A stretch of 64,000 bases of DNA from a phage. The notes under the pieces were generated by a model. It had not been told where the DNA came from, did no database searches, and saw only the letters and a list, made by a program, of their open reading frames with translations. Position numbers and translations under genes: made by a program. The DNA is taken from the sequence record PZ026127.1. One strand, given 5' to 3'. Shown here piece after piece: positions 1,526-54,433 of the stretch. Within the stretch, counting starts at the first letter, position 1. Each line of letters opens with the position of its first letter.

Positions 1526-1762
1526 ATGGAAGCTTTAATCGTTAGTGCTGGTGTTTTAGGATTCGGTTCTCTGGTTATTATGTTCATCGGTTACTTTTTA
1601 CCATGGATTCTGGCTCTTCTGCGAGGCACTCGTAGTAATGTCGGAATTTTCTTCCTTAATCTCCTGTTAGGCTGGACGATGATTGGTTGGGTAGTGGCTT
1701 TAATCTGGGCTATCGTCGCTGAACGTAAATCAAACGCACAAATCATTATTGTTAAGCAATGA
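1526..1762 (+). CDS. imm: Imm superinfection-immunity membrane protein
   Basis: 78 aa, two hydrophobic helices, position directly after gene 43 as in T4; RBS GAGGAA. Confidence 0.85.
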   Translation: MEALIVSAGVLGFGSLVIMFIGYFLPWILALLRGTRSNVGIFFLNLLLGWTMIGWVVALIWAIVAERKSNAQIIIVKQ

Positions 1763-1903
1763 AAATAATTATTTTATTTCTTATAATGACTGCCTTTACC
1801 ATTTATTGGGCAGTGGCAATTCCGCCAATGATTCCGACACTCATCATTGGATGGATTATTCTTATAGCACAAATTAAGTATAACTGTTTTAATTGAGGAT
1901 ATT

Positions 1904-2404
1904 ATGAAAAAGTTAATTATCGCAATGAGTATGCTCCTATCAGGTTGCGCGGTCCAATATGGTGATACAGTTTCGGCCGATGAAGTTGGTAAAGCTCGTA
2001 TCGCAGCTGAACAGAAACAATTCGATGGCGAAATGAAATTCCGTGCAGGTTCTGGACTTGTGTACACCCGAGCTAATAATCAATGCGGTAATAACTGTGC
2101 AAAATATGCTCAACAAGAAATCGAATTCCAACGTGAACAAGAGTCCAAGCGTGAAGCGGTACTAGCCAAACACCAGGCAGAAATGAAGCGTCAAGATGAT
2201 TTGTACAAAAAGCAGAAACTGTATGCGATGTGCGTAAACCATATCAATCTACAGATTTCCATCCACGAGGCTCGTTATTACGAAATGCTCGAAACCGAGA
2301 GCTTCGGTAAAGCTCGTGATTATAAGAAACAAATCGATAAGCTCAAGACCAAAGCACCGGCGGCAATAGAACAGTGTATTGAAATCGGTAAAGATAAGAT
2401 TTAA
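1904..2404 (+). CDS. predicted lipoprotein, function unknown
   Basis: N-terminal MKKLIIAMSMLLSGC lipobox followed by charged coiled-coil-like region; RBS GAGGA. Confidence 0.6.
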   Translation: MKKLIIAMSMLLSGCAVQYGDTVSADEVGKARIAAEQKQFDGEMKFRAGSGLVYTRANNQCGNNCAKYAQQEIEFQREQESKREAVLAKHQAEMKRQDDLYKKQKLYAMCVNHINLQISIHEARYYEMLETESFGKARDYKKQIDKLKTKAPAAIEQCIEIGKDKI

Positions 2405-2464
2405 GCAATACCAATTTATTAAAAATAGTGTATAATGTACCTACATTCACTTGAGGAACAGATA

Positions 2465-4138
2465 ATGAAAAAGGTTGTTATTTTAGGCGCGGGTCTTGGC
2501 TCACGGTTGTATCCAATTACCAACGAAATCCCGAAGGTACTGGTTAACTACAAACAACATACTGTATTAAAACATTTGTATGATTTGTATAGTAATCAAT
2601 CAGATGAAATTATTCTGGTTATTCACAGCAAATTTAACGACCTCGTTAAAGGCTATATTAAATCCATTAACATGATTAATAGTGATAAGCCTAAATTCAC
2701 TATTCGTAACGTTGATGTTGCCAATGGTTCGGCTCATGCTATCGATTGCATTGCCGAAGATATCATTGGGCACAATGTCTTGTTTAACTGGTGTGATATT
2801 ATTCCTGAAGGTCATAAAGTTGAGTGGGATAACGACTACTGTTATACCTATGGGACTGACTGTCGTTTTACATTTGAAGAACCGTACTTGCGTGAAATTG
2901 GTACCGGTGGTGGCGTAGTTGGCTTGTATCAGGTGGCTAATTGGACAGGTTTCGACCGTTCTAATTATGGTGAAGACCTTGCTGACAACCTGGATTCAAT
3001 GGTCCATTTGACTGAACGTAAGTTAGACTTTGTAGTTGATGTTGGTGACAAACTGAAACTGGCTAAGGCCCATGAAGATTCTGAAATTAACCGTGAATTT
3101 AATAAATTAGAGTTCACTGAGAATCTAGCTATTAAAGTACCTACAAACGAATTAGGTAAAGAAATCCAATCTAAAGAAATCAATTGGTACAATTCTATTG
3201 ATTCTGAATTCGTTCCTAGCATTGTAGACTTTGCTCCAGGTGAATTCATTAAAATGGAACGTATCTTTGGTCGAACCATGGCAGATGCCTACCGGTTTAT
3301 GTCTAAAGAAACTAAAGTCCTAATGGTTTATAAGGTTATTAGTGCATTACGTTCGTTCGGTGGAACTATCGATAATCCATCTGATGAGCAATGGTATTCT
3401 GATGTTAAGAAAGAAGTATTGGACAAGGTCCTTATTCGTAATGCTTCTATCGCCGGATTGATTGAAGGCTTTGCTCCACAGGGCATTACCCATGTTAACG
3501 ACTTTAAGGTAGGCGACCCTGAAAAACTTCTTCGCCATGCACTAGAAATTCTGTCTGAACATAAAGAACCGTACCAACTTATTCATGGCGACCCGCACTA
3601 CAGTAATATTATGTTGTCGGACGAAGGTGATATTAAAATCATCGACCCACGTGGTTATTTTGGTAATAGTTCTAAAGGCCCTGCGATTTATGATGAAGCT
3701 AAGGTGCTTTATTCTATCGATGGTTATGACAAATTTAACTCTGACCCTCTATGGGGTGGCTTAACTCGTAACGGAACTCGTGTATTCGTTGATATTGAAA
3801 AGGTTATGCCTTTAGATGATATTCCAATGTGTACATTTAAGCACAAGCTCTGGATTGCTGTTATCTGGATGGCATTGGCAGGTTACTTTAAAAATAACCC
3901 TCTGAAAGCTCTGGGTGCTTATTACAACGGTTTGTACCAACTGAGTGTGCTGCTGAAGCGACATCCTCGTAAGCGTAAGCTTATCACAGGTGAATTCGTT
4001 GATGAAGTTCGCGACCCTATCACGGCTCAAATTATCACTCGTTGTCCTGATAAGTGGGTTTTGCTTGACCAAGAAACTGGTGTAAAATATAAACCTACAG
4101 GTTCTACTGAACTCCACAAACAATGGAAGAAAATTTAA
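2465..4138 (+). CDS. bifunctional nucleotidyltransferase / kinase-like phosphotransferase (N-terminal sugar-1-P or phospho-alcohol nucleotidyltransferase domain, C-terminal APH/choline-kinase-like domain)
   Basis: N-terminus ILGAGLGSRLYPIT...PKVLV matches the G-x-G-[ST]-R-x-x-P-x-T nucleotidyltransferase signature; C-terminal HGDPHYSNIM...IKIIDPRG matches the catalytic loop of aminoglycoside/choline/anomeric-sugar kinases. Start set at ATG 2465 after GAGGAA; the track ATG at 2435 lies inside a TGTATAAT -10 box. Confidence 0.7.
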   Translation: MKKVVILGAGLGSRLYPITNEIPKVLVNYKQHTVLKHLYDLYSNQSDEIILVIHSKFNDLVKGYIKSINMINSDKPKFTIRNVDVANGSAHAIDCIAEDIIGHNVLFNWCDIIPEGHKVEWDNDYCYTYGTDCRFTFEEPYLREIGTGGGVVGLYQVANWTGFDRSNYGEDLADNLDSMVHLTERKLDFVVDVGDKLKLAKAHEDSEINREFNKLEFTENLAIKVPTNELGKEIQSKEINWYNSIDSEFVPSIVDFAPGEFIKMERIFGRTMADAYRFMSKETKVLMVYKVISALRSFGGTIDNPSDEQWYSDVKKEVLDKVLIRNASIAGLIEGFAPQGITHVNDFKVGDPEKLLRHALEILSEHKEPYQLIHGDPHYSNIMLSDEGDIKIIDPRGYFGNSSKGPAIYDEAKVLYSIDGYDKFNSDPLWGGLTRNGTRVFVDIEKVMPLDDIPMCTFKHKLWIAVIWMALAGYFKNNPLKALGAYYNGLYQLSVLLKRHPRKRKLITGEFVDEVRDPITAQIITRCPDKWVLLDQETGVKYKPTGSTELHKQWKKI

Positions 4139-4521
4139 TGTCACATCGAGTAGAAAATAAGCCTCATTTATGTTTTGACATCGATAACACAATCACGATT
4201 TGGAACCATGACCGTGATTATGAAAACTTTAAACCGGACACCGAAATGGTGTCCATGATTAATAAGCTTTATGATGAAGGATGCGAGATTACCTTGTTCA
4301 CTGCCCGTGGTATGACTTCATGCGGTCCAGGTCGAATCTTGGTTGAAGTAGTTCCTGCATTGGTTAAGAATCTTGAAAAGATTGGATTGAAATATCATAA
4401 TCTGCTTACACATAAGCCGAGTTATACTTTTATCATCGATGACCGAGCAATCCGTCCTGACCACTTTAAAGAAATGGTTCGTGAAGGAACTCTTGAAACC
4501 TATAAGGCATATCATCCGTGA
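4138..4521 (+). CDS. HAD-superfamily phosphatase-like protein
   Basis: Motif I FDIDNTIT (DxDxT), motif II TLFTAR, motif IV IIDDR; start ATG overlaps upstream stop (TAATG). Confidence 0.6.
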   Translation: MSHRVENKPHLCFDIDNTITIWNHDRDYENFKPDTEMVSMINKLYDEGCEITLFTARGMTSCGPGRILVEVVPALVKNLEKIGLKYHNLLTHKPSYTFIIDDRAIRPDHFKEMVREGTLETYKAYHP

Positions 4522-5054
4522 AACCAAAAATCATTGTTATCGACGGCCCGGATAATTCCGGGAAGTCTACTTTAATTGAATCGCTTTTATCTGATAAGAA
4601 ATATCGTCTTATCGATTTCCCTAAAAAGATTAATGGTAAGTGCATTTCGATAGGGACTGATAATGACAAGGCTTTAGTCGAGACGTTGTATAAGTTTTTA
4701 GACCCTAATTTTGTCTACATCTTAGACCGTGGATATCCTAGTAATATTGTTTACTCAGGATTCCTTCGTGGTGAAATGGACCCCTATGTAGAACTGGAAG
4801 ATTGGAAAGGGTTTAAATCTGAATTCAATATTATTGAGGTTATTTTAACCCGTAATCCACTGGATAAAGACTTTGAAGATGACCTTATTAAATTAACCAA
4901 AGATGAGTTCAACCTAACTATCCGGCAATATGAAACATGTTTTGAAAACGTGTTTAAAATCTTAAATCACGACGGCCATAATAACTTGCTTAACGTCGAT
5001 ATGGTAGAATTAAAACGTCTGAATGAATATATTGAAAATAAGGTGAATAAATGA
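4518..5054 (+). CDS. P-loop nucleotide kinase, thymidylate-kinase-like
   Basis: Walker A IVIDGPDNSGKST and TMK-like DRGYPSNIVYS motif; GTG start overlapping upstream stop. Confidence 0.6.
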   Translation: MKPKIIVIDGPDNSGKSTLIESLLSDKKYRLIDFPKKINGKCISIGTDNDKALVETLYKFLDPNFVYILDRGYPSNIVYSGFLRGEMDPYVELEDWKGFKSEFNIIEVILTRNPLDKDFEDDLIKLTKDEFNLTIRQYETCFENVFKILNHDGHNNLLNVDMVELKRLNEYIENKVNK

Positions 5055-5749
5055 AACACATTACCGCTGTTAGTTTTGAAAACGCGTTTAAGCAAATGAA
5101 CGAAGAAATCCTGGAAGCTCCACAGTTTGCAGTTGATTCTCGTATCGGCCGTTGTTATGAAATTGGTTCTGCTTCGGTAGAAGTACTGGATGCAAGCACC
5201 TATAAATTCACCGACCCTCGTATTAATCGTATCAACTATGATTATGCCGAATCTTTCTGGAAGTTTATGATTTCTGGTGGTACTGACGCCGCCGAAGCAT
5301 TTAAGGAATACCCTAATGTTGCTAAGTTCATTGATAAGCCGAAAAGTGACGTATTGCCTGCAAACTTCAACACTTTCTATGGACCTAGAATTGTGGCCCA
5401 ACTCCCAGCCTTACTTAAAGAGCTTAAAGAGAAGCCTAACTCAAGACGAGTTGTGTTCCAAATTCTCCAAGAACAAGACCAAGCCCTCCTTGATTCTGAC
5501 GAATCCTTAGAATATCCATGTACCGATTCGGTGACATATTATATTCGTGATGGACGTCTGTATGCACACACTCATATGCGTTCACAGAACTGTGCTATTG
5601 TTATGCAGCTGGATTTCTATCTGCAGGGTAAACTGATGGCCTTTATTGCTGAACAGTGTGGTGTTGGTCTGGGTACGTATTCCCATACTATGGTTAGTGC
5701 ACACGTATTTGAACGTGATTTTGACTACGTTCGAGGATTCCTGAAATGA
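5051..5749 (+). CDS. 42: dCMP hydroxymethylase (thymidylate-synthase fold)
   Basis: 232 aa; motif CTDSVTYYIRDGRLYAHTHMRSQN resembles T4 gp42; position between imm region and uvsX. Confidence 0.85.
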   Translation: MKHITAVSFENAFKQMNEEILEAPQFAVDSRIGRCYEIGSASVEVLDASTYKFTDPRINRINYDYAESFWKFMISGGTDAAEAFKEYPNVAKFIDKPKSDVLPANFNTFYGPRIVAQLPALLKELKEKPNSRRVVFQILQEQDQALLDSDESLEYPCTDSVTYYIRDGRLYAHTHMRSQNCAIVMQLDFYLQGKLMAFIAEQCGVGLGTYSHTMVSAHVFERDFDYVRGFLK

Positions 5750-6639
5750 GTTTGTTTATCGTTCCTATTTTCAGTATGCGTAGTTACGAAACAGGTGAAT
5801 ATGCCGTCCTTAAGGACGGCAATTTTCAACTCCATTTAAACCGTGCTTGCCCAGGTGATTATCTGGCTTATCCTAGAAATTCGAGCGATATCAAAGAATG
5901 CATTGAATTATTTCCTGAACTGAATTTTGTACCTCTTTGGTATAAAGAAAATGCTTATGAAACTCGTAAACATTTTTGGTCTGAAAATGAGTTCGTTGTT
6001 GATTCGTTAATCGAATACTATGACTGCTCAGGATTGGTAACCGATATCACAGGTTATGATGGTGCTCATACCGTACAATTCAACTTTAACATTACAATGG
6101 ACCCTGAAGTTCCTCGTTATTACATCGATGAGTTTATTGATACCGACGTGGGTTCAGTTGAACGTTCGATTTATACTACAGTCTTGAATCAATGTCAGAA
6201 AGACGTCCTGGTGTCACGAGGTGCGTCCTCTGATAAGATTTTTGTAGACCAAAAGGTAATTAATCCTGCAGTAATTGAGCGTTACTCTGAAGGTCTAGCG
6301 CCTATTAAAATTGATGGTATTTTCCATCCATTCCGTATTTCAGATAAATGCTACCAATTCGAAAGAGTTGTAGACCAGGCTGCGGCTGAGGGTTCTCGTC
6401 TTTACATCACCGACCCGAATGATTCATTTAAGCGTGAAGACTATCGTCCTGATGTAGAGATTATTAAATTCAAACCGAGTAAGGTTGAATATTATCAGAT
6501 TCTGAAATCAAGACCTCATATCATTTATCATGAGAATCCCGGTTTAGTATTCCATCCTGGTCTGGCTGAATTCATTTATTTCGGTGCCCACATCCATTCT
6601 GAGCACGAAATGCCAAGTTATGAGGACGTGGTCCTTTAA
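5746..6639 (+). CDS. unknown protein occupying the beta-glucosyltransferase position; candidate hmC-DNA transferase
   Basis: 297-aa ORF translationally coupled to gene 42 (ATGA overlap); no recognisable motif; assignment by synteny only. Confidence 0.4.
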   Translation: MSLFIVPIFSMRSYETGEYAVLKDGNFQLHLNRACPGDYLAYPRNSSDIKECIELFPELNFVPLWYKENAYETRKHFWSENEFVVDSLIEYYDCSGLVTDITGYDGAHTVQFNFNITMDPEVPRYYIDEFIDTDVGSVERSIYTTVLNQCQKDVLVSRGASSDKIFVDQKVINPAVIERYSEGLAPIKIDGIFHPFRISDKCYQFERVVDQAAAEGSRLYITDPNDSFKREDYRPDVEIIKFKPSKVEYYQILKSRPHIIYHENPGLVFHPGLAEFIYFGAHIHSEHEMPSYEDVVL

Positions 6640-6716
6640 CGCTGTAAATGTGAAGTGATATAATTACCCTATCTTAAAACGTGAGTAAAATATAATGATG
6701 CCTATGGAAAAATATA

Positions 6717-7889
6717 ATGTCTGATTTAAAATCCCGTTTGATTAAAGCTTCTACTTCTAAAATGACCGCCGACCTGACCAAATCTAAATTGTTTAATGGT
6801 CGTGACGAAGTTCCTACTCGTATCCCTATGCTGAATATTGCATTGGGCGGTGCGTTGAATGCAGGCTTACAATCAGGTTTGACAATCTTTGCTGCTCCAT
6901 CTAAACACTTTAAAACGTTGTTTGGACTTACCATGGTTGCGGCATATATGAAGAAATATCCAGACGCAATTTGTTTGTTCTATGACTCTGAGTTTGGTGC
7001 TTCAGAATCTTATTTCCGTTCGATGGGTGTTGATTTGGAACGTGTGGTTCATACACCAATCCAGTCAGTCGAACAGCTTAAAGTTGATATGACCAACCAG
7101 TTAGAAGAAATTACTCGTGGCGAAAAGGTTATTATCTTTATCGACTCCATTGGTAACACTGCTTCTAAGAAAGAAACCGAAGATGCTTTGAACGAGAAAG
7201 TTGTAGGTGATATGACTCGTGCTAAATCACTGAAATCTCTGTTCCGTATCGTAACACCTTATCTGACTATCAAAGATATCCCTTGTGTAGCAATCAACCA
7301 CACGGCTATGGAAATTGGTGGAATGTATCCTAAAGAGATTATGGGTGGTGGTACTGGTATTCTGTACTCTGCTTCTACCGTGTTCTTTATCTCTAAACGT
7401 CAGGTTAAAGATGGTACCGAGCTCACTGGTTATGACTTCACACTGAAGGCTGAGAAATCTCGTACGGTTAAAGAGAAATCAACGTTCCCTATCACCGTTA
7501 ACTTCGAAGGTGGTATCGACCCATTCAGTGGATTGCTTGAAATGGCTACTGATATTGGCTTTGTCGTGAAACCTAAAGCTGGCTGGTATAATCGTGCATT
7601 CCTTGACGAAACCACAGGCGAAATGGTTCAAGAAGAAAAAGCATGGCGTGCTAAAGCTACCGATTGTGTCGAGTTCTGGGGACCGCTGTTTAAACATGCC
7701 CCGTTCCGTGAAGCAATCGAGAATAAGTATAAGCTCGGTGCAATTAATTCTATTAAAGAAGTTGACGATGCAGTGAACGACCTTATTAACTCTCGTGTCT
7801 CTAAGAACGTTGCTGTTAAATTAGGTGGTAATGCCCAAAGCGCCGCTGATATCGAAAACGATTTGGAAGAGATGGATTTAGATGACTGA
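6717..7889 (+). CDS. uvsX: UvsX recombinase (RecA-like)
   Basis: 390 aa, N-terminus MSDLKSRLIKASTSK and overall strong match to T4 UvsX. Confidence 0.95.
   Translation: MSDLKSRLIKASTSKMTADLTKSKLFNGRDEVPTRIPMLNIALGGALNAGLQSGLTIFAAPSKHFKTLFGLTMVAAYMKKYPDAICLFYDSEFGASESYFRSMGVDLERVVHTPIQSVEQLKVDMTNQLEEITRGEKVIIFIDSIGNTASKKETEDALNEKVVGDMTRAKSLKSLFRIVTPYLTIKDIPCVAINHTAMEIGGMYPKEIMGGGTGILYSASTVFFISKRQVKDGTELTGYDFTLKAEKSRTVKEKSTFPITVNFEGGIDPFSGLLEMATDIGFVVKPKAGWYNRAFLDETTGEMVQEEKAWRAKATDCVEFWGPLFKHAPFREAIENKYKLGAINSIKEVDDAVNDLINSRVSKNVAVKLGGNAQSAADIENDLEEMDLDD

Positions 7890-52744: not shown

Positions 52745-54433
<1,689 letters not shown>

Follow-up and report, generated by a model that had tools for sequence, protein, structure and literature searches.

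Gene organization and sequence relatives

The DNA analyzed here is a 64,000-nucleotide stretch of a phage genome (sequence record PZ026127.1), referred to below as the window. At positions 5746..6639 (+ strand), it contains an open reading frame (ORF) with an ATG start that encodes a 297-residue transferase candidate, a compact protein of the GT-B fold and the orthologue of RB69 gp46:47, Acinetobacter phage DLP3 gp79 and Thanatos TH1_063. The start codon overlaps the TGA of the preceding ORF (5051..5749), which encodes a 232-residue ThyA homologue, in an ATGA at 5746..5749, and a GAGGA lies 8 nucleotides 5' of the start. Downstream, uvsX starts at 6717 (Pfam T4_UVSX_C, E 4e-36). Compared with T4, where the order is gene 42, b-gt (beta-glucosyltransferase, beta-gt, 351 residues), segA and uvsX, the ORF shares the slot of b-gt between a ThyA homologue and uvsX. 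An original prediction, made from the nucleotide sequence, had placed in this slot a translationally coupled 297-residue protein that is shorter than T4 beta-gt and dissimilar to it. Position, coupling and length are all confirmed, and comparison of the two proteins gave a best blastp E-value of 6 and an hhalign probability of 0.13%. No similarity to T4 alpha-gt was found either, and hhalign against the GT4-type RB69 gp3 gave a probability of 0.3%. Scans of the protein against Pfam (E ≤ 0.1) and NCBIfam (E ≤ 0.01) returned no match, and a sequence profile search of the PDB found nothing credible (best E 0.74).

By tblastn, homologues of the ORF occur in 353 phage records, with a coverage of at least 80% in 349, and the protein has a match to PHROG 3891 ("unknown function"; E 8e-159). 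These numerous homologues and the PHROG match, together with the confidently predicted fold described below, indicate that the ORF did not arise by chance. The protein is 99.7% identical to its counterpart in Shigella phage PSD9 and 97% identical to that in JS98, and the window is therefore assigned to Dhakavirus. The products of RB69 ORF047c+046c are 67–70% identical, and TH1_063 from Shewanella phage Thanatos is orthologous over its full length (51% identity, E 1e-97). The family is small, with only 242 of 1.84 billion representatives at E ≤ 0.001. All of its invariants are present in the 297-residue protein, namely MRS (M11–S13), DGN (D24–N26), FxPFRxxD (F193–D200), TDPN (T222–N225), K246 and H270 of an H-P-G motif. 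Distant relatives of 345–380 residues carry an additional C-terminal segment of about 50 residues.

The GC content of the gene cluster (0.37–0.40) is the same as that of its flanks and thus gives no hint that the genes were acquired recently. A promoter and terminator scan of the region yielded 17 promoter-like sites (17.9 expected) and 2 terminator-like sites (4.0 expected). One promoter-like site, at window 6636–6664 (TTAACG, 17 nt, TG-TATAAT; 10/12 matches), is located between the transferase stop codon and uvsX, where such sites are, region-wide, no more frequent than in shuffled sequence.

Predicted structure

The AlphaFold model of the 297-residue protein, built from an alignment of 45 homologues, has a mean pLDDT of 94.6 and a pTM of 0.89. 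Comparison with known structures, including the GT-B enzymes proposed as a check by the original prediction, identified a GT-B fold that is closest to GT4 structures. Foldseek also returned GT-B proteins, with UDP-GlcNAc 2-epimerases at the top (E ~1e-6) alongside MshA and HepE. Since the sequence methods were all negative, the GT-B assignment derives from structure only. According to the model, the protein would be a minimal, stripped-down GT-B enzyme of two Rossmann domains. Relative to bacterial retaining GT4-type enzymes (sucrose-phosphate synthase, 6kih; BshA, 6n1x; PimA, 2gej; MshA, 3c4q), with which it shares only 8–11% identity, it is about 60–100 residues shorter, matches neither Pfam Glycos_transf_1 nor Glyco_trans_4 and has no clear EX7E motif. 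In the sequence alignment, the region that may be equivalent to EX7E reads F-H270-P-G-L-A-E275-F.

The leading Foldseek matches would also suit an enzyme resembling a UDP-sugar 2-epimerase or a hydrolase, which would remodel a nucleotide sugar without transferring it, and a similar top match is reported for RL38J1_215 of a Rhizobium phage (PMC13326640). Such a role is very improbable for the 297-residue protein, for which the combination of a Pfam Epimerase_2 match and a best structural match that would mark a UDP-GlcNAc 2-epimerase was not found.

Upstream synthase and acceptor base

The 232-residue ThyA homologue encoded immediately upstream (5051..5749, + strand; Pfam Thymidylat_synt) is a predicted 5-hydroxy-dCMP synthase. 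It is 79% identical to RB69 gp48 and matches PDB entries 9iqu/9iqc at E 1e-125, compared with just 5e-6 for T4 dCMP hydroxymethylase (1b49). In E. coli ThyA numbering, it contains N169, D177 and E143, whereas T4 gp42 has D169; the Asn/Asp difference is visible directly in comparison with RB69 gp48 and T4 gp42. Asn169 is the signature of flavin-dependent 5-hydroxy-dCMP synthases, and the activity of RB69 gp48 has been shown experimentally (PMC13326640). The identity to RB69 gp48, the PDB matches and Asn169 thus indicate that the acceptor base is 5-hydroxycytosine, not 5-hydroxymethylcytosine (hmC). The upstream gene had been taken for gene 42 in the original prediction; judged from its sequence, it is functionally not a dCMP hydroxymethylase gene and encodes the enzyme that makes the acceptor base.

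T4 alpha- and beta-glucosyltransferases (GT72 and GT63) are likewise phage GT-B enzymes that act on the C5-oxygen of a modified cytosine; however, they glucosylate hmC in DNA with UDP-glucose as the donor, and beta-gt is inverting whereas the 297-residue protein is predicted to be retaining. The shared genomic slot and the GT-B fold would be compatible with a divergent functional analogue of T4 beta-gt that decorates hmC, as originally suggested. Of the alternatives weighed here this is the least probable, and as a reading on hmC it is already contradicted.

The window also encodes a conventional ThyA homologue of 287 residues, the true td, right after a DHFR gene (window 52758–54433); thus, the phage has a real thymidylate synthase in addition to the hydroxylating homologue. 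In a 383-kb contig (GCA_040384225.1), a Flavodoxin_2 (FMN reductase-like) gene at L006:4426-4932 lies two genes upstream of an N169 ThyA homologue, and its product could supply reduced flavin to the hydroxylase.

Five-gene module and proposed donor synthesis

The synthase and transferase genes belong to a five-gene module joined by four successive overlaps of 1–4 nucleotides (TAATG at 4138, GTGA at 4518, ATGA at 5051 and ATGA at 5746). The 567-residue protein encoded at 2435..4138 (+ strand) consists of an N-terminal sugar-1-phosphate nucleotidyltransferase and a C-terminal sugar kinase (Pfam NTP_transferase and APH) and is of the AfhE / RB69 gp52:53 type. It contains the signature LGAGLGSRL, has NCBIfam uridylyltransferase matches, aligns with PHROG 4098 over residues 11–567 and is 41–44% identical to the products of RB69 ORF053c+052c. 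Because homology begins at residue 11, translation probably initiates at the ATG at 2465. The next gene (4123..4521, + strand) encodes a HAD-type sugar phosphatase of the AfhF / RB69 gp51 type (NCBIfam TIGR01689 capsule biosynthesis phosphatase, E 5e-14) that is 63% identical to RB69 ORF051c in an alignment from residue 8. It may start at the ATG at 4138, given homology from about residue 6–8 and the TAATG overlap with the upstream stop codon. Between the phosphatase and synthase genes, a 178-residue P-loop dNMP/thymidylate-kinase-like protein of the RB69 gp45 type is encoded at 4518..5054 (+ strand). It contains the motif GPDNSGKST, matches PHROG 761 ("thymidylate kinase") at E 3e-39, has weak Pfam and NCBIfam kinase matches and is 37–44% identical to RB69 ORF045c, Thanatos 064 and DLP1 076.

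The AfhE and AfhF orthologues of HY126 make UDP-arabinofuranose from arabinose-5-phosphate, according to the work of He et al. as related in PMC13326640, and by analogy the 567-residue protein is predicted to make UDP-arabinofuranose. The donor would then differ from the UDP-glucose used in T4, in line with the different donor specificity that the original prediction had raised, and is probably UDP-arabinofuranose. Neither the window nor the complete PSD9 genome contains an arabinose-5-phosphate isomerase gene; presumably, the phage relies on a host enzyme (KdsD/GutQ). At the place of the RB69 isomerase, after the DNA polymerase gene that ends at 1463, window 1526–2404 contains genes for a 78-residue predicted membrane protein and a 166-residue ORF, and a 36-codon stretch at window 1786–1893 is 58% identical to RB69 ORF054c.

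Thanatos has the same cluster, and TH1_063 is likewise the sole protein with a glycosyltransferase fold in its phage. Purified TH1_063 formed UDP-xylose from UTP and xylose-1-phosphate, as detected by LC-MS/MS (PMC12838424), and was published as a UDP-xylose pyrophosphorylase. Its full-length orthologue in the window could accordingly be a UDP-pentose pyrophosphorylase (UTP + pentose-1-phosphate → UDP-pentose), with transfer left to another protein. We consider this improbable. The fold is GT-B, no sugar-1-phosphate nucleotidyltransferase is found among the structural neighbors, and searches for a nucleotidyltransferase fold or G-x-G-x-R signature gave no Pfam, NCBIfam or structural-neighbor match. 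Furthermore, the 567-residue protein already provides the cluster with a canonical nucleotidyltransferase, and AfhE of HY126 is reported, in the account given by PMC13326640, to be a UDP-arabinose pyrophosphorylase. A pyrophosphorylase role would also leave Thanatos and the Dhakaviruses without any transferase. The published assignment of TH1_063 is thus unsupported by the fold and gene context described here, and the UDP-xylose observed may reflect a GT-B enzyme running in reverse at its donor site, which fits a transferase that uses UDP-pentose.

A single transferase candidate in the genome

A tblastn search of the window and the near-identical PSD9 genome with RB69 ORF003c, two DLP1 glycosyltransferases, T4 a-gt and b-gt and PS2 ba-gt found no second transferase. 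When seven known T-even transferase types were compared with the window and the rest of the PSD9 genome, the 297-residue ORF was the sole match. The gp3-type second transferase is absent even though the gp39–rIIA junction, the site of gp3, falls within the window. Genes of the RB69 ORF050c/049c type are not present in the window either, and a Pfam scan of ten further mid-sized window ORFs identified standard T4 genes only. The 297-residue protein is therefore not just the best candidate transferase, as originally predicted, but the only one genome-wide.

The gp3 type is restricted to Mosigviruses (at least 95% identity) and Acinetobacter/Tegunavirus phages (<60%). In contrast to RB69, Dhakavirus has no gp3-type second transferase, arabinose-5-phosphate isomerase or ORF050c/049c genes. 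RB69 gp3, the HY126 glycosyltransferase (PDB 9iqz) and DLP3 gp76/gp77 are distal arabinosyltransferases of about 366 residues that are less acidic than the 297-residue protein; they put the second and third sugars onto sugar, as demonstrated on DNA (PMC13326640), and are not found in this phage. With a single transferase in the genome, the phage DNA is predicted to carry single arabinoses. For Thanatos, one pentose per cytosine (PMC12838424) and single arabinoses on DNA (PMC13326640) are reported. Outside the window, the PSD9 genome also contains three tandem genes for Alt-type NAD:arginine ADP-ribosyltransferases (PSD9_6 to PSD9_8; L010:4478-10590).

Kinase partner, fusions and distant relatives

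A homologous P-loop kinase gene adjoins the transferase gene in all ten genomic contexts examined, and an N169 synthase gene adjoins it in nine. These contexts are the window, RB69, Thanatos, DLP1, two jumbo-sized contigs, a marine T4-like contig, another T4-like contig, a contig from a phage with a Pol III-alpha-type polymerase and Rhizobium phage RHph_I46. The usual gene order is synthase, glycosyltransferase, kinase. The window differs from RB69 gp46:47 and DLP3 gp79 (Lee et al., NAR 2026, PMC13326640) in that the kinase gene is upstream of the synthase gene, not downstream of the transferase gene.

At least eight distant homologues (P0201, P0204, P0215, P0222, P0227, P0242, P0244 and P0250) are fused to a C-terminal P-loop domain with the motif EGFDRIGKD, in which Asp replaces the usual Ser/Thr after GK. 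By hhalign, the aligned extensions match the cluster kinase at 94% (E 1.3e-7), and P0204 also has a Pfam Thymidylate_kin match; BLAST and a 6-sequence HMM were too insensitive to resolve this relationship. At least seven other homologues (P0131, P0144, P0150, P0155, P0161, P0172 and P0190) have an N-terminal fusion to a HAD-like domain that is homologous to L005:3678-4301. A separate gp1-type dNMP kinase is retained in PSD9 (PSD9_218) and RHph_I46 (EVB81_135), and the cluster kinase is thus not merely its substitute. The P-loop kinase is probably a required partner of the transferase. Its adjacency and fusion to the transferase, the reported inactivity of single transferases on DNA containing 5-hydroxycytosine and the acidity of the family suggest that it is the partner missing from failed reconstitutions.

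The conserved association with a kinase bears on the form of the acceptor. The same enzyme, operating as a unit with the co-conserved P-loop kinase-like protein, could act on the free nucleotide, such that 5-hydroxy-dCMP is arabinosylated before replication, the P-loop kinase phosphorylates the product and the polymerase inserts a glycosylated dCTP analogue. Besides the invariant adjacency and the fusions, the usual gene order corresponds to the order of such a pathway, and an extra kinase would need some other job, since the RB69 gp1-type kinase already phosphorylates 5hodCMP (PMC13326640). Single glycosyltransferases were inactive on DNA containing 5-hydroxycytosine, and the data of Lee et al. 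do not distinguish mononucleotide from DNA as the acceptor of the first sugar (PMC13326640); the acidity of the family also fits. On the other hand, phage DNA glycosylation takes place after replication in every characterized case, and no glycosylated nucleotide pool has been reported. The later arabinoses are attached at the DNA level (PMC13326640). Gene fusions often join members of one pathway that do not catalyze consecutive steps, and the fused and Rhizobium P-loops read GKD instead of GKS/T, which may signify a non-catalytic binding role. On balance, we regard transfer to the free nucleotide as unlikely, although it deserves more weight than any of the other alternatives. Overall, a DNA acceptor is favored about twofold over a mononucleotide on the precedent of all other known phage DNA glycosyltransferases.

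Two distant relatives are informative about the invariant motifs of the family. Serratia phage PS2 (NC_024121), an hmC phage, encodes a 308-residue full-length family homologue (FF83_gp042; L009:5001-5927; hhalign 99%) located between a true D169 gp42 on one side and ba-gt and b-gt on the other. It lacks every invariant motif (MRS, DGN, FPFRISD, TDPN and HPG) and, from its sequence, looks like a decayed or repurposed relic. RHph_I46 EVB81_139 is a distant member (hhalign 98.9%, about 25% identity) that keeps the invariants and is encoded beside an N169 synthase and a P-loop protein. In Rhizobium phages (Pootjesviridae), the base-proximal sugar is reported to be galactose, and the RL38J1_215-type protein is termed "galactosyltransferase 1" (PMC13326640); it belongs to the same family as the 297-residue protein and differs in donor specificity. 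As the motifs are kept in the galactose-type Rhizobium member and lost in PS2, they track the 5-hydroxycytosine pathway, not a particular sugar.

Several other relatives were noted. Cronobacter phage VP8 (hit H39) was recorded alongside PS2 for the same relic-type homologue. The most divergent member, P0117, comes from a 26-kb Logan contig (locus L014:3496-7220) of a phage with a Pol III alpha-type polymerase. A P-loop kinase-like gene overlaps it on the upstream side, downstream there are a Peptidase_U32-like gene, possibly of the type of RB69 ORF050c, and a gene with faint GT47 resemblance, and no ThyA homologue is encoded within 4 kb; this locus may represent a variant pathway. A 153-kb marine T4-like contig (BATS) has a gene for an NAD-dependent sugar epimerase/dehydratase (L015:6683-7567) just downstream of the synthase–transferase–kinase trio, a hint that the sugar of the marine relatives may be another one or may be modified further.

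Proposed function

Taken together, these results make it probable that the 297-residue protein is a base-proximal UDP-arabinofuranose:5-hydroxycytosine arabinosyltransferase, probably of the retaining type. Within this assignment, there is good support for the identity of the synthase and for the GT-B fold, whereas the donor, the stereochemistry of transfer and the form of the acceptor are inferred. Contrary to the original prediction, the family is not unrecognized. It was described in 2025–26, with the name arabinosyltransferase 1 given to the RB69 and DLP3 orthologues, although the GenBank records still read "hypothetical".

In the proposed pathway, the ThyA homologue would hydroxylate dCMP to 5-hydroxy-dCMP, as does its 79%-identical counterpart RB69 gp48, and the 567-residue protein and the HAD phosphatase would convert host arabinose-5-phosphate into UDP-arabinofuranose, as reported for their HY126 orthologues. 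The 297-residue protein would then bind UDP-arabinofuranose in its interdomain cleft and move arabinofuranose onto the 5-OH of 5-hydroxycytosine. Retention of the anomeric configuration would produce an alpha ether linkage, and the arabinose in RB69 and DLP3 DNA is attached through such a linkage (PMC13326640). Candidate catalytic and binding residues are the invariant R12/S13, D24/N26, R197/D200, D223/N225, K246 and H270.

Several observations weigh against an arabinosyltransferase. Single purified glycosyltransferases, including DLP3 gp79, were inactive on 5-hydroxycytosine-containing DNA with UDP-arabinofuranose or UDP-arabinopyranose (PMC13326640), and the Thanatos orthologue showed no transfer in vitro when tested with UDP-xylose on non-hydroxylated acceptors (PMC12838424). 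No reconstitution of the first transfer was found in the literature, in a search that did not extend to Mahler et al. 2025 and He et al. 2026. The canonical EX7E motif of GT4 enzymes is not evident, and libraries and profile comparisons reveal no sequence-level tie to a glycosyltransferase family of CAZy, Pfam or NCBIfam. Lastly, with a net charge of −19 and a pI of 4.9 (family median pI 5.2), the protein is very acidic, whereas T4 beta-gt is basic (pI 9.05).

Implications for T4-like phages

The adjacency of transferase and kinase genes and their fusions provide a lead on the first transfer, the step of the pathway for which no reconstitution was found in the literature consulted. If the sugar is indeed added to the free nucleotide, this would be the first case of hypermodified phage DNA glycosylated by a pre-replicative path, and the failure to reconstitute the first sugar transfer on DNA would be accounted for. 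An enzyme brought to activity could serve as a compact tool for placing pentoses on DNA.

Hundreds of T4-like genomes annotate the transferase as "hypothetical" and its neighbor as "dCMP hydroxymethylase" or "thymidylate synthase", including those of Dhakavirus, Mosigvirus and Klebsiella and Acinetobacter phages that are used or proposed for therapy. The corrected reading is that such phages carry arabosylated 5-hydroxycytosine, and for the phage analyzed here the five-gene module with its single transferase predicts a mono-arabinosyl genome. The arabinosyl modification determines which restriction, CRISPR and glycosylase defenses these phages evade or trigger.

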